This document shows positions 41,513 through 61,598 of a stretch of 64,000 bases of DNA, piece by piece; positions within the stretch are counted from its first letter, which is position 1, and the number at the start of each line of letters is the position of its first letter. The stretch spans positions 3,616,001 through 3,680,000 of the forward strand of contig CM000152.2 in assembly GCA_000004695.1 (NCBI GenBank). Reading direction: 5' to 3'. Source of the stretch: Dictyostelium discoideum (taxonomy: Eukaryota). A program made the translations under genes and the position numbers. Under the pieces are notes generated by a model that worked only from the letters and a program-made list of their open reading frames with translations, did no database searches and had not been told where the DNA came from.

Positions 41513-41925
41513 TTAAACTATTGTACATCTTGATGGTTCAACAGTTTGTTGATCTTTTTGAAGGTGTCCAATGAAATATTGGTCATTTAAAATTTGTAAC
41601 ATTTTTGAAGAATGAAATTGAACATTTTCTGTTCCATCTTTACCTGCGAATCTTAATAATGCATTCTTACCACCAGGATGGTGATTAATATATTTCGTAA
41701 TATCATAAACCTTATTATGTATGATCATCCAACAACTATCAAAACTATTATGCGTTGCTATTTCCTCTAAAGAGAACCAATTATTTTGATTTATTGGATC
41801 ATTTAATTTACCAGGTTTATATTTTGATATTATAGGTGTTATTATTTTTTCTTTTTCTTTTTCTATTATTTTTGTTGTATCTATTATTCTTTTAACTTGT
41901 GGTTGTTGCTGTTTCTTTTCATCAC

Positions 41926-41956
<31 letters not shown>

Positions 41957-42445
41957 TTTATTATTTTTATTATTATTATTATCATTATTGTTACTATTAA
42001 CATTTGTATTATTATTTAAAGTTAAATAGATTGGTTGTATATTTGAATTTGTTTCTTTATTAAATTTTTCATGAGAAGAATCGCAAAAAGGTAGGTTTGA
42101 GGATTGTTGACAAACACATACTAATGTCGTTGTTGTTTTGCCATTACTCATACTTTCTAATAACTGTTTAGTTTGTGGTAATTGTTCATTCGATAAATAT
42201 TGCAAACTATTTGATATATTATTTAAACACTCTGACAATGGTTGATCTTTTGATACCTTTTGCTCAATTATAATCTTTCTGTCACCATTATTATTATTAT
42301 TAATGCCACTATTATTACTACTATATTCTTTTTTACTACTACAGTGTGCTGGAATTCGCCCTTTACCTTTATTTGAGCTGCAACAGCATGAATCACATGA
42401 CTGTCTTTTCCTTATCGATTTTGGAGGTGAATTTACTGGTATCAT
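41513..42445 (-). CDS. Cytochrome b5 heme-binding-domain protein with a Cys-rich N-terminal region and a poly-Asn linker, 310 aa
   Basis: ATG at 42445. The C-terminal domain LEEIATHNSFDSCWMIIHNKVYDITKYINHHPGGKNALLRFAGKDGTENVQFHS carries the b5 HPGG signature. N-terminus: CDSCCCSSNKGKGRIPAHC...VCVCQQSSNLPFCDSSHEKF. Confidence 0.65.
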
Positions 42446-50725: not shown

Positions 50726-52204
50726 CTATGGCTTGAATGAAGATTTTGATTTAATCCTGTCAATGAAAAATTCTTGAATGATTTTAGTTTTTTCTTTCAT
50801 TATTTTTTGAAGTGTTTCTGTATTATCTTCGATTTCTTTAAATTTATTGTGAGGGTGTTTGGACCTAATAATTAATCAATAGTTAGTAAATTAAAATAAT
50901 AATAATAATAAAAATAATAAATAAAGAATAATACCATGGATTGTCTATAAAAATGGCAGGTTTATCTTTAATATTATCTATCATTTCATTTCTAACTTGA
51001 TTTATTTGATTTTTTTTATCACTGAATGTTATTATAGTTGATAAACATTCTAAAGTATCATTTAAAAGTGTTGAAAATAAATTTGATTGTTCTTTTATTT
51101 TTCCTATTAATTCGGCATTAAAAACTAAACTAACACTATCAATTCTTTCAAGTTTATTTACAGCCACTGATGATAGGATGGATTTGATATGTTGTCGACC
51201 ATCTTTATCTAAATCTTTTGAATCTATAAAACCTGGTGTATCTATAATTGTAATTCCAAACATCCATGTATTTTCAGAATGATATTCAATATCATATCGA
51301 CAAACACTTTTAGTTTTACTTTTACCAACACCTATAATATCATCCTTATTTTCCAAATTTGTTGCGCGTAATTGTTTTGGATCATCATTAATTTGACCTG
51401 TTATAATATTAAGAAATAATTCAATCATTGTTGTTTTACCAACACCTGTCATACCTAATAAAATAAAATTGAAACGTTGATGATCATCATCAAATGATGA
51501 AAATAAAACTAAATTTCTATAAAAATCTTTAAATGAATCATCTTCAATTAAATCCACATTTACGAAATATTTAAAAACAAATTCATCAGATTCTTTTGAA
51601 AAGTTACTAAATTGTAAACTATTTGAAATTTTAATTTTATTTAATCGTTCTTTCCATTCACCTAAACTTTTTAAATCTAAAATTTTACATTCACTTTTAT
51701 CTTTATAAATAATAGTTGAAGGGAAACTAACTTCATCATTATCCCATTTACCATCGATTGATATTAATTGATCTATATTACCATCACGATATGTTAATTT
51801 ACCATTACCATGACGTTTACCATCTAAACATAATCCTTCATATTTTGAAGCATCTTTATATTTATAAATTCCTTTATAAATTGGTTTATTATTAACAGTT
51901 GGACCAATCCATCTACCTTTATCAGTTTCTGTAAATGTTGAACCAATAATTTGTTGAGAACTTAATTTTAATTGAAAAATTGTTGCTTCTGTATATGGAA
52001 TGTTTTTACTATAATTTTTATCATTATTATTAAAATCATTGATAAATGAATATAATATAATATGATATAATATAATATAATATAATATACTTACTTTAAA
52101 ATATTTTTCATTGAACTTTGAATGAATTTAGTTAAAGAATCTTGAACATTTTTTAAAAATTTAATTTGTTCATCAACTCCTTTTGATAATTCATTTAAAT
52201 AAAT

Positions 52205-52236
<32 letters not shown>

Positions 52237-53518
52237 GATCTTTATTATTATCATTTAAAAATTTATTAAATGATTGTAATTGAATAATCATTTGTTCTAT
52301 CTCCCAATAGAATGAACCAATTGATGATATTTTATTTTTATACTGATTTAAATACATTGAACTATTAGATAAGATTGTTGTTACTCTTTGTGGTATTGGT
52401 GAAATTTCAATTCTAATTGGTACTAATTTATTTGGATCAACTTTAAATGAATCTATGATTTTAATTGCATCATCAAAACTTTGAATATTATTTTGATTAT
52501 CAATTGGTTCACAACCACCCCAAACAATTGATGATGTTGAATTTATTCTTGAAAATGATGAACTATCACTTTCCTCAATATGATATTTAACAGAGATTTT
52601 AAATAATCCAAAATTAACACCTGCTTCAAATTCACCTTTTAATTTTTTCATTGTCGAATGGTCACTAAAAAATACATATTTTACATAAATATACATTAAT
52701 TAACCACCTGTTGTATTATTACTATTATTATTAATAATTATTATTAAATACATACGAAGAATCTAATGTAATTTTAACATCTATAAATGAACCATATTCA
52801 ATTTTACTAATATAATATAGGCCATATTTTGATCTGAGTGAATCAATATCTTTTTCATTTATAATATCATTAGATGGTTTTGCATGATAGTCTAATTCAA
52901 CGATTTTATCAACAACTCTTCTTGAATATAAAAATGTCATTGTTTCATTATTTGTAATATTGGTTTCCATATAACTACCCATAACCTTTCCATAAAGAAG
53001 TCCAAATGATAACCCAATTTCTATATTGTATTTAAATATAAAAATTTATAATTAATATAGGTGTAAATAAACCATAACTAACTCATCTTCTCCTCTCCCC
53101 CTCACATTAAAAATTAAATATAATTAAACATACCTCCACCAACATTTAATGCTGATTTTAATGATTCACAACTTCTAATTAATGTAAAGTTATTTGAATC
53201 TGTTTTAGGAAATGTTGAATTGATATTCCTATTTTTATGGATTAGAAAATAAATTAATATATTTTTTTTTTTTTTTATTTTGAACTAATAAAAAAAAAAA
53301 GAAAATTGTGAAAATGATAAAAATAAATACTCTTTTCACAAACGATAATAATAAATACTCTTTTTCACAAATGATAAAAATAAATACTCTTTTTCACAAA
53401 TGAATACAGTGTTTTTGATAGCATTCCCACCATTTTCGTCAATACTGAAACCTCTTCCTAAATCATTTTCTAAAAGTGATGAATTTGTTCCTGATGGTAT
53501 TGGTAAAACCAATGACAT
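50726..53518 (-). CDS. Multi-domain protein: unknown ~330-aa N-terminal domain, then MORN repeats, then an AIG1/GIMAP-like (TRAFAC) GTPase domain. 6 exons.
   Basis: Phase-checked exons on the minus strand: E2 53228..53134, E3 53020..52756, E4 52664..52095, E5 52008..50935, E6 50864..50726 (stop). Donors are GTATGT or GTAAGT except E5, which is TG|GTATTA and weaker. E1 starts at ATG 53518 (MSLVLPIPSGTNSSLLENDLGRGFSIDENGGNAIKNTVFI) and its 3' end is unresolved. MORN repeat: YKGIYKYKDASKYEGLCLDGKRHGNGKLTYRDGN. GTPase P-loop LLGMTGVGKTT and G3 IIDTPGF. C-terminus: helix SKHPHNKFKEIEDNTETLQKIMKEKTKIIQEFFIDRIKSKSSFKP*. The track ORFs 52731-52982, 52091-52696 and 50883-51557 are parts of this one gene. 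Confidence 0.6.
53290..53395. repeat. Three tandem copies of a ~30-bp unit inside intron 1 of the MORN-GTPase gene
   Basis: Plus-strand unit: cacaaa[c/t]gataa(t/a)aataaatactcttttt. Confidence 0.5.
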
Positions 53519-54257: not shown

Positions 54258-55617
54258 TTAATTTTTTTTAAAATTGAAACCTTTGAAAAGGTATCTTTTA
54301 ATTGGTTTTTTGTTGTTTGTTTTTTTAGCAGAAACTGTTTTTTTAACATTTTCTCTTTCAAAAAAATAACTGGAATCATATTCATTTTCTATTTTTGGCT
54401 TGAATGTCAAAGATTCTGGAGAATAAATTTTACTCCAATTTACTCCATTAAAGAATGGATGTCTTTTAACTTCATCAGCACCATTTGCACCTAATCTCTT
54501 TAATGGATCTACTTGTAATAATTTTTGAATTAAATCAATTGCAACTTCAGAAAAATAAGATGGAAAATTTATTTCATTTGTATAGTTAGTGATTTTTTCA
54601 AAAATCATATTTTGATTATCACCAACGAATGGGGTTTCACCACTTAACAATTCAAAAATGATGATACCCAATGCCCACCAGTCAATAGTTTTACCATATC
54701 CACGTTTATTAATTACTTCTGGAGACATGTAGTAAGGTGTTCCCAAACATTTGTTATTTTTTTTATTTCCATTTTTAATACTATTACCGGTGAAACCAAC
54801 TTCAGAAAAACCAAAATCAACAATTTTGATAATTCCGTTTTTATCAAAAATTAAATTTTCAACTTTTAAATCTCTATGAATGATACCACAACTATGAATA
54901 AATTCTAAACCATTAACAATTTGAGCAATAATATTTTTAGCTTCACGTTCTTCTAAAGTATTAAGTGAGTGCAATAATGAAGCACAATCACCACCATGTA
55001 AAAACTCCATAACCATATAAAGTTTTTTTTTTGTTTGAAAACATTCAAATAATTTTACAATTGACTGGTTTTGGTATTGAACTAATATATTTCTTTCAAC
55101 CATCAATTCTTTAACCATATGTTTTCCAATTGTATCACGTTTGTTAATTGATTTGATGGCAAAGAATTTATTTGATTTGGTAATGGCTAAAAATACTTGA
55201 CCATATCCACCTTTGCTAATTGGTTTAATAAAATAATAACCTCTAGTTTTAAACAAAATATTATGTGAAGATGAAATTCTTGCAGTTGAAAGTGGTGATT
55301 CAATTGGAGAGGATGGATTACTACGATTATCTAATGTTTCAGAATCACCTGGTTGATTAATTTTATTTAAATTATTATTATTTAAATTTAATTTAGGAAT
55401 AAAATTATTACTTAATAATAAAAGTTTTAAAAATTTTATTAAAAAAAAAAAATTAATAATATTAATAAATAATTATTTTATTTATTTAAAAAATAAAAAT
55501 AAAAAAAAAAAAAAAGAAAAAAAATTAAACTTACTTTGAAACTTTATCTTTTGGATTTTCGATCATAGTTTCATTGGTATTAATTTCTTGTGGATTTCTA
55601 TTATTTATTGTTTCCAT
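54258..55617 (-). CDS. Ser/Thr protein kinase (AGC-like, with C-terminal FxxF-type motif FKGFNF), 411 aa, 2 exons
   Basis: Exon 1 is 55617..55535 ([27 protein letters not shown], phase 2), donor GTAAGT. The 124-bp intron is 55534..55411. Exon 2 is 55410..54258. Kinase motifs: [45 protein letters not shown]. The track ORF start at 55256 is TTG, not ATG. Confidence 0.75.
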
Positions 55618-60593: not shown

Positions 60594-61598
60594 TTACAAT
60601 TTTCTAAACTCTTTAGCATCATTTCTTTCTTCTAATTCCAACATATCAAGTATTTCTTGAGGTAATGGTACTGATTGTGCTTCTTCATAAATATGAGGTA
60701 ATTGTAGTGGTGCTTGTGGTTGAAGGCTTTTTATTGTTGATGTTTTTGTGGTTGTTGTTGTTGTTGTTAGTGGTCTTGGTGATGATGATGATGATGATGA
60801 TGATGATGGTTCATCAGAGTTTGGGTAATATGGTGTTGGTGAATATGGTTCAAAACTATTTGAATTCGATGTTTGTTGTTGTTGTTGTAATGGAGGTGGA
60901 TAATATTGACTATAAGATGTTGGTGGTGCTGATGGTTTTGGTGAATTTGGTTCAAAACGATTTGAATTTGATGTTTGTTGTTGTTGTTGTTGTGATGAAG
61001 GTGGATAATATTGTGAATTGTCAGCAATAGTTAAGGTTGGTTCAACTTCTGTTTCACTATTTGAAATTCTTTGAATTGTTGTTGGGAATGATATTTTTAT
61101 ATAATATTTATAGTAATTATTAACAAGTTCACGTTCAAATTTCCATACAATTCCTCTTGGGCCATAATGTCTATTTACCTCTATTAAGAACGTTTTTATA
61201 TTATTCTTATATATTGCAGCTGAAATACAAAATGAGCATGATAATAAAATAGTTCCAATTATTGAAAGCATTGATCCAAGTATAATCAATGCAAGACTAA
61301 TTTTTCTTTTTTCTTCAGATTCTTTGGTTACCATTATATATTCTTCATAATTTTCATCAAGTTTCCAAGTATTATCAAATTTCAAAACTGAACCTGCAAC
61401 AACCATTCCTAAACCACCAAACAAAATTATAATAAAAAAAAAAAATTTATAATTGAATGAATTAAATGTGTTTAATTTTTTAATAATTAATAAATATTCT
61501 CTTTTATTTATTACTCCTTCTAATCTAGTTTGATATTCTTCAATGAATTTATTATTTGTTTTTGCCACCCCTGTCTGAGATATTCTGATTTGTTCCAT
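60594..61598 (-). CDS. Hypothetical two-TM membrane protein with a Pro/Tyr/Gln-rich tail (YYPP and PPxY-like repeats), 334 aa
   Basis: ATG at 61598. TM helices FFFFIIILFGGLGMVVAGSVL and ISLALIILGSMLSIIGTILLS. Tail with repeated SQYYPP...QQQQQTSNSNxFEP units. Confidence 0.5.
   Translation of the reverse strand: MEQIRISQTGVAKTNNKFIEEYQTRLEGVINKREYLLIIKKLNTFNSFNYKFFFFIIILFGGLGMVVAGSVLKFDNTWKLDENYEEYIMVTKESEEKRKISLALIILGSMLSIIGTILLSCSFCISAAIYKNNIKTFLIEVNRHYGPRGIVWKFERELVNNYYKYYIKISFPTTIQRISNSETEVEPTLTIADNSQYYPPSSQQQQQQTSNSNRFEPNSPKPSAPPTSYSQYYPPPLQQQQQTSNSNSFEPYSPTPYYPNSDEPSSSSSSSSSPRPLTTTTTTTKTSTIKSLQPQAPLQLPHIYEEAQSVPLPQEILDMLELEERNDAKEFRKL

Follow-up and report, generated by a model that had tools for sequence, protein, structure and literature searches.

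Canonical MACPF proteins (perforin, C6–C9, MPEG1/perforin-2, Plu-MACPF, TgPLP1, and pleurotolysin B; Pfam PF01823) are secreted or lumenal. In stonustoxin (SNTX; PDB 4wvm), an alpha/beta heterodimeric venom cytolysin, the MACPF domain is followed by FAT-like, thioredoxin-like, and PRYSPRY domains. For septins, Toc GTPases (Toc33/34/159), and GIMAPs, dimerisation or oligomerisation depends on nucleotide. Here we describe a gene of Dictyostelium discoideum, DDB_G0280711, whose product seems to draw on all of these. It lies on the minus strand of a 64,000-nucleotide stretch of DNA (positions 3,616,001 to 3,680,000 of contig CM000152.2, GenBank assembly GCA_000004695.1), which we will call the window. 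We read the gene product as a cytosolic modular pore-forming-type protein with a MACPF/CDC domain, a linker, MORN repeats, a GTPase of the septin/Toc/AIG1 clade, and an amphipathic helix; for this reading as a whole, our confidence is evenly balanced.

The protein differs from each of the described systems. It has none of the C-terminal FAT-like, thioredoxin-like, or PRYSPRY domains of SNTX; their place is taken by a helical linker, the MORN array, the GTPase, and an amphipathic helix, and the protein is only ~13% identical to stonustoxin. In contrast to canonical MACPF proteins, it lacks a secretion signal, and its ancillary domains (MORN repeats and a GTPase) are different. It has the repeat sequence and the array of beta-hairpins in common with MORN1, junctophilins, and radial-spoke proteins, but its array has just ~3 repeats and lies between a pore-forming-type domain and a GTPase. 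Finally, compared to the AIG1/Toc proteins (GIMAPs and the Toc GTPases) and septins, the GTPases of this family have an insert of 25–30 residues between G1 and G2, and their G4 motif reads [ST]FxD, which is not the usual G4 of the AIG1/Toc and septin families.

The original prediction reported no recognisable family for the N-terminal part of the protein. In direct searches with the query, amino acids 1–340 had no match in Pfam and no match to the sequences in PDB, and a profile built from Dictyostelium N-termini only did not match any PDB sequence either. Against 1.84 billion representative proteins, the Dictyostelium N-terminal profile had 141 matches at E ≤ 1e-3 and 67 at E ≤ 1e-10. Matches to stonustoxin and other MACPF proteins arose only once distant relatives were added to the profile. 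All of the PDB matches for this broadened profile were to MACPF/CDC proteins. The top matches were stonustoxin alpha (E = 6.8e-6), stonustoxin beta (E = 1.2e-5), and a MAC/perforin protein (E = 4.9e-4); with weaker E-values, we found Aeg-L, GNIP1Aa, two proteins of the cholesterol-dependent-cytolysin type, astrotactin-2, Plu-MACPF, TgPLP1, and perforin-1. The Pfam MACPF model matched 8 of 60 distant relatives at E ≤ 1e-3 (best E = 3.3e-6), and its link to the query is transitive, by way of profiles. In almost all of the relatives, we could recognise the MACPF signature (Y/W-G-T/S-H-F/Y-x6-G-G) as YGT[HK]F-x6-YGAQL, in which G-A replaces the final G-G. In the query, the motif reads YGLYY-x6-YGS, which keeps the tyrosine (Y141), both glycine positions (G142 and G152), and the spacing, but neither T-H nor the second G of G-G.

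Structure prediction agreed with the profiles. As a proxy for the query, we modeled an ortholog that is 97% identical (P0001). The AlphaFold2 model of amino acids 1–300 of P0001, from a broad alignment, had a predicted local distance difference test score (pLDDT) of 76 and a predicted template-modeling score (pTM) of 0.74. It has long central strands (101–118 and 144–163) with helical clusters at the flanks (roughly 64–93 and 166–198), which corresponds to the bent or twisted central antiparallel beta-sheet and two flanking helical clusters of the MACPF/CDC fold. The figures listed with this model are 11.0 for MPEG1, 11.0 for TgPLP1, 10.6 for GNIP1Aa, 10.5 for Mpf2Ba1, 10.3 for C8 alpha, 10.1 for Plu-MACPF, 9.9 for pneumolysin, and 9.5 for C9. 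As judged from its sequence and its predicted fold, the segment from amino acids 1–258 is a divergent MACPF/CDC domain of the stonustoxin-like branch: stonustoxin is the nearest relative by both sequence and structure, the MACPF domain is N-terminal, and a signal peptide is absent. So the earlier view that this region lacks a family stands for direct searches of Pfam and PDB, but not for the broadened profile or the model. MACPF and gasdermin-like folds had both been put forward as candidates; the first is borne out, while the gasdermin N-terminal pore-forming fold did not fit.

In stonustoxin, the transmembrane hairpin (TMH) regions refold from helical clusters into membrane-spanning hairpins (summarised in PMC8704401). 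The equivalent regions of the query are each about 40 amino acids long. We computed the beta-type hydrophobic moment (180 degrees, nine-residue windows), whose mean across the protein is 0.85 (standard deviation 0.61). The moment reaches 2.0–2.6 at amino acids 70–83 and 2.5–3.0 at amino acids 171–194, or 2–3.5 standard deviations above the mean. This is a property of the sequence only, yet such strong 180-degree periodicity is as expected if TMH1 and TMH2 refold into membrane-spanning hairpins. We did not find a signal peptide or a transmembrane segment anywhere in the 757 amino acids; the most hydrophobic 19-mer is the strand of the P-loop.

The GTPase domain has the motifs that are typical of AIG1 proteins: a G1 motif that fits GxxxxGK[ST], a switch-I (G2) threonine (in SKTKSV) that is invariant in the family, and DTPG followed by a hydrophobic residue (IIDTPGF). 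However, septins and Era-like GTPases also have these G1–G3 motifs, so they are not specific to AIG1. When we used hhalign to compare the family's profile to a true AIG1 protein, the probability was 64% (E = 6.6e-5), and the 84 aligned columns covered G1–G3 only. Profile matches to the septins Cdc3 (E = 8.8e-4) and Cdc10 (E = 2.3e-3) were also limited to G1–G3, and there were weak matches to Toc proteins. In the homolog from Pelomyxa, Pfam's Septin model had a sub-threshold match. By structure, the nearest neighbours of the G domain are AIG1/Toc proteins. Because the AIG1 alignment is limited to G1–G3 and Pfam's AIG1 model does not match, we assign the domain to the group of TRAFAC GTPases that comprises septins, Toc, and AIG1 proteins, and not to AIG1 itself. 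The G4-like TFSD may have a role in guanine specificity. The original prediction called this domain an AIG1/GIMAP-like GTPase: the G motifs and the structural neighbours agree with this, but membership in AIG1 proper is unsupported by sequence. Membership in the IRG (p47) family, which had also been considered, found no support, as the domain does not match IRG/IIGP-type G domains.

Two other predicted elements fared well. The MORN repeats are present (tandem YxGxWxxGxxxGxG-type repeats that form beta-hairpins, PF02493), although Pfam's MORN score of 18.9 bits falls below the gathering threshold of 22.5 bits. The C-terminal helix is indeed amphipathic: its alpha moment is 1.88, compared to a mean of 0.75 (standard deviation 0.38), or about 3 standard deviations higher, and the corresponding region of the P0001 model (722–745) is a helix. 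Between the MACPF-like domain and the MORN repeats, the structure model shows linker helices at 261–304, 309–340, and 356–370.

A search with the whole protein found Dictyostelium proteins only. Orthologs in other strains of D. discoideum are 96–97% identical and those in D. citrinum are 82–84% identical; there are also several paralogs with 50–60% identity. The paralogs are longer (the AX4 paralog DDB_G0280583 has 965 amino acids). We noticed that a D. dimigraforme protein of 1145 amino acids has a second MORN+GTPase unit, that in proteins of the DDB_G0280583 type a second MORN block precedes another C-terminal region, and that four other paralogs end in a legume-type lectin domain. Some strains have truncated versions of paralogs, with 476–863 amino acids. 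Unlike some of its paralogs, the 757-amino-acid protein contains no lectin domain.

The full combination of MACPF-like domain, MORN repeats, and GTPase is also found in D. purpureum (F0ZUZ2), Cavenderia fasciculata (F4Q2V0 and F4PUN5), Synstelium polycarpum, and the archamoeba Pelomyxa schiedti. This distribution implies that the architecture dates back to the Dictyostelia at least, and probably further within the Amoebozoa. Farther away, proteins from the molluscs Haliotis cracherodii (XP_071114325) and Potamilus streckersoni (KAK3597702) have the same N-terminal MACPF-like domain (E of about 1e-5 to 4e-4 for the family profile). As in the query, this is followed by a coiled region and then by a GTPase of the AIG1/Toc/septin group; unlike the query, the mollusc proteins have a true AIG1 domain (E = 4e-36 and 4e-49) and a Hint module, and they lack MORN repeats. 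With the Hint module (hedgehog/intein-type autoprocessing) at the C-terminus, this architecture suggests that the pore-former/GTPase unit might be released by self-cleavage. A protein from the red alga Porphyridium combines the MACPF-like domain with a G domain, and dinoflagellate and metagenomic proteins combine it with MORN arrays. Other relatives have lectin domains of the C-type, H-type, or ricin-type. Given these combinations in amoebae, molluscs, a red alga, and a dinoflagellate, it appears that this branch of MACPF proteins has recruited GTPase, MORN, and lectin domains recurrently.

How might these domains work together? Our analysis establishes the gene model, what the three domains are, the amphipathic pattern in the TMH regions, the lack of a secretion signal, purifying selection, and the recurrence in other eukaryotes of MACPF-like domains combined with MORN repeats or with GTPases. 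We infer from this that the protein binds membranes, is controlled by GTP, and forms pores, and its biological role is likewise inferred. To form a pore, MACPF/CDC proteins must oligomerise, and they rely on an ancillary domain to get to the membrane; here, the MORN repeats, the C-terminal helix, and the GTPase could be the ancillary parts. The MORN repeats and the amphipathic helix would bring the protein to its target membrane, as the lectin domains may do in paralogs. GTP-dependent dimerisation or oligomerisation of the G domains would raise the local concentration of MACPF domains, which would form a prepore. The helical clusters (amino acids 61–100 and 164–204) would then unfurl into amphipathic beta-hairpins and perforate the membrane. 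The likeliest target may be an intracellular membrane, such as the phagosome or a pathogen vacuole, or else the cell's own membrane during a death or defence response; damaged endomembranes are a further candidate. The most economical reading would be a cytosolic pore-former whose assembly on the target membrane is gated by GTP. In its most specific form, namely a GTP-gated intracellular perforin in which a GTPase of the septin/Toc/GIMAP type licenses a cytosolic MACPF pore on the membranes of pathogen vacuoles or of the cell itself, the proposal is tentative and somewhat doubtful. A cell-autonomous defence module, as in the original prediction, would fit the logic of the domains; overall, we find that earlier interpretation supported in part.

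Several observations weigh against reading the protein as a GTP-controlled pore-former. First, unlike canonical MACPF proteins, the query does not match PF01823 at E ≤ 1, and its MACPF signature is degenerate (T-H → L-Y and G-G → G-S). Second, PF04548 (AIG1) is not matched at E ≤ 1 either, and the GTPase is not assignable to AIG1 by sequence; that it would dimerise upon GTP binding is an extrapolation from related families. Third, the TMH1 region and some stretches of the GTPase have a pLDDT of only 40–70. Finally, polymorphism between strains is not elevated in this gene, though it might be expected to be elevated in a gene for conflict or immunity.

To look at selection, we compared two strains of D. 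discoideum, which have 29 synonymous and 22 non-synonymous differences in this gene, and we computed the ratio of non-synonymous to synonymous substitution rates (dN/dS) by the method of Nei and Gojobori. dN/dS was 0.18 for the whole coding sequence, 0.10 for exons 1–3, 0.15 for the N-terminal domain, 0.12 for the MORN region, and 0.10 for the GTPase and C-terminus. It was relaxed (0.86, from small counts) in the helical linker. Such low values (0.18 overall and 0.10 for exons 1–3) indicate that the joined reading frame codes for protein under constraint and did not arise by chance. The proteins from the two strains differ by 3–4%, while the flanking genes differ by more in the same comparison (9–14%): a kinase is 91% identical and a membrane protein is 86% identical, versus 97% for this gene. 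We therefore rejected conflict-type hyper-polymorphism; the more divergent flanks and the low dN/dS mean that this comparison shows no signature of diversifying selection.

We considered whether the protein might use the MACPF fold without forming pores, for trafficking, tethering, adhesion, or developmental signaling, with the GTPase as a membrane-remodeling or scaffold element. This seems unlikely to us. Both of the TMH regions (~40 amino acids each) keep a strong alternation of hydrophobic and polar residues, which would be needless if they did not insert into a membrane. Also, stonustoxin, which is the closest relative by sequence and by structure, is a pore-forming venom cytolysin, as described in a review of fish cytolysins (PMC8704401).

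An exported toxin, which would leave the cell by unconventional secretion or be released by lysis and act on prey bacteria, competitors, or predators, is about equally improbable. The MORN repeats and lectins would then recognise the surface of the target. The best matches of the N-terminal domain are to stonustoxin, which lacks a signal peptide, and the legume-type lectins at the C-termini of paralogs suggest glycan targets; other relatives have C-type, H-type, and ricin-type lectins. However, a GTPase depends on the GTP of the cytosol, and this speaks for an intracellular site of action. MORN repeats usually belong to cytosolic proteins that associate with membranes. And the paralog at this locus, with its 757 amino acids, does not have a lectin.

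Is the gene itself real? The original prediction joined several separate open reading frames (ORFs) into six exons that encode a protein of ~760 amino acids. The alternative is that exons of separate genes have been joined, or that they are the remains of a decaying pseudogene. This gains something from the annotation of the reference strain AX4: the model for DDB_G0280711 (XP_641137, UniProt Q54UZ4) has just 589 amino acids, as it begins at an internal methionine in exon 4 and omits the first 168 amino acids (exons 1–3). But several kinds of evidence contradict it. In our model, all of the introns are GT..AG, and the joined coding sequence of 2,274 nucleotides encodes 757 amino acids followed by TAG, with the start, stop, and size that had been predicted; it contains the peptides SFGLLYGKVMGSYMETN, KGEFEAGVNFGLFKISVKYH, GMTGVGKTT, and DTPG. 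From end to end, the spliced protein matches NCBI's KAM9949906.1 (ACTFIT_011131, D. discoideum) exactly, and that entry was annotated independently on a 6.43-Mb contig. A second D. discoideum assembly has a syntenic locus with six matching exons, and all of the splice sites are conserved there; the exon lengths are equal except for 15 nucleotides in the polyglutamine tract of exon 4, and the joined coding sequence translates exactly to the annotated protein P0001. Paralogs such as DDB_G0280583 can be aligned colinearly to each of the exons, and the full N-terminus is present and colinear in paralogs (including DDB_G0280583 in AX4) and in orthologs from at least four species. A single MACPF fold is divided between exons 1–3, which supply its first half, and exon 4, which supplies its second half, and dN/dS in exons 1–3 is 0.10. 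Mis-joined genes or a pseudogene are very improbable and are effectively excluded; we consider it confirmed, by sequence comparison, that this is one six-exon gene, and the support for its exon junctions is comparative, rather than from cDNA. Because the AX4 model starts in exon 4, the reference annotation has only half of the MACPF-like domain.

The UniProt name for Q54UZ4 ("Rad50/SbcC-type AAA domain-containing protein") would make the protein a Rad50/SbcC-type ABC ATPase instead of a GTPase, and AAA_23 is indeed its best Pfam match (E = 1.6e-6, just above the cutoff), but the G motifs and the structural neighbours contradict this, and we consider it effectively excluded and scarcely credible. 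The name, which derives from the marginal match to AAA_23, is probably a misnomer. The databases otherwise label the gene as "hypothetical".

At the end of exon 1, a 29-bp tandem repeat duplicates the donor sequence, GAAAAAGA/GTATTTAT. Since 29 cannot be divided by 3, the reading frame is kept only with the first copy of the donor, and we rejected the other copies as alternative donors because they are out of frame. The repeat could give rise to cryptic splice variants that break the frame. The window is very AT-rich (about 20–25% GC). It contains no additional copies of the gene and no remnants of a C-terminal extension; within the window, the gene is single-copy.

Features of DDB_G0280711 (coordinates are positions in the window; aa, amino acids of the 757-aa protein)
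Feature	Position	Strand	Remarks
Whole gene, ATG to TAG	50726..53518	-	D. discoideum DDB_G0280711; full-length model KAM9949906.1
Exon 1, 131 nt	53388..53518	-	phase-2 donor GA/gt; conserved start MSLVLPIP and DLGRGF motif
Exon 2, 95 nt	53134..53228	-	
Exon 3, 265 nt	52756..53020	-	
Exon 4, 570 nt	52095..52664	-	includes the polyglutamine tract (CAA repeat, 52205-52237)
Exon 5, 1074 nt	50935..52008	-	MORN repeats and most of the GTPase
Exon 6, 139 nt	50726..50864	-	C-terminal helix and TAG stop
29-bp tandem repeat with 3.2 copies and 92% matches	53312..53403	.	spans the boundary of exon 1 and intron 1
MACPF/CDC-like (stonustoxin-like) domain, aa 1-258	52382..53518	-	across introns 1-3
TMH1-equivalent helical cluster, aa 61-100	52947..53179	-	across intron 2; helices between central strands, low pLDDT
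Degenerate MACPF signature YGLYYISKIEYGS, aa 141-153	52788..52826	-	G142 and G152 invariant in the broad family
TMH2-equivalent helical cluster, aa 164-204	52544..52757	-	across intron 3; KGEFEAGVNFGLFKISVKYHIEE alternates hydrophobic and polar residues
Helical coiled-coil-like linker with polyglutamine, aa 259-375	51945..52381	-	across intron 4
MORN region, aa 380-462	51684..51932	-	~3 repeats, one canonical (YEGLCLDGKRHGNGKLTYRDGN)
GTPase domain, aa 527-715	50855..51491	-	across intron 5
G1/P-loop GMTGVGKT, aa 539-546	51432..51455	-	second G and K invariant; final T at least 90% conserved
G3 DTPG, aa 610-613	51231..51242	-	invariant
G4-like TFSD, aa 681-684	51018..51029	-	at the end of a beta-strand; family consensus [ST]-F-x-D
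C-terminal amphipathic helix, aa 727-750	50750..50821	-	followed by a conserved SKSSFKP tail

In the literature available here, which does not cover subscription journals, we found no paper on MACPF or perforin-like proteins in Dictyostelium and no mention of DDB_G0280711 or its AX4 paralog; nor did anything relevant turn up on MACPF proteins together with AIG1 or with MORN. All of the domain types are known, but we did not find the combination of a MACPF-like domain, MORN repeats, and a GTPase in that literature; a survey of comparative genomics might mention it. If the protein is a GTP-gated intracellular perforin, then one polypeptide would unite functions that in animals are divided between immunity GTPases (IRG, GBP, and GIMAP) and pore-formers (perforin-2 and gasdermins), and the pairing of MACPF-like domains and GTPases across amoebae, molluscs, and a red alga would point to an immune or cell-death module of eukaryotes that is either ancient or repeatedly assembled. 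A cytosolic protein with a MACPF domain, MORN repeats, and a GTPase of a dimerising type gives a hypothesis that can be tested genetically: that a nucleotide switch controls an intracellular pore of the perforin type. D. discoideum is a professional phagocyte that is already used to study the vacuoles of Mycobacterium and Legionella. More broadly, the stonustoxin-like branch of MACPF proteins is widespread in protists, which bears on the origin and regulation of pore-forming immune effectors.

We also looked at the surroundings of the gene. An assembly that is labeled as D. discoideum (GCA_054859385.1, JBTAPF010000020.1) is syntenic with 20 kb of the window (43954–63968), with ~72–90% DNA identity. 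Together with the 86–91% identity of the neighbouring proteins, this suggests a lineage that is rather divergent from the window's strain. The upstream neighbour (54258–55256, minus strand) is a protein kinase (Pfam Pkinase, E = 1.4e-69) and is syntenic in the other strain; as the annotated kinase there has 402 amino acids, the ORF in the window is probably one exon of a longer gene. Farther upstream (60594–61598, minus strand), an ORF of 334 amino acids has apparent hydrophobic segments, a Q/S/P-rich tail, and no match in Pfam; its ortholog in the other strain is only 86% identical. On the other side of the gene (41513–42445, minus strand), an ORF of 310 amino acids encodes a CDGSH-type iron-sulfur zinc finger (E = 5e-7), a poly-N tract, and a C-terminal cytochrome b5-like haem-binding domain (E = 3e-21).

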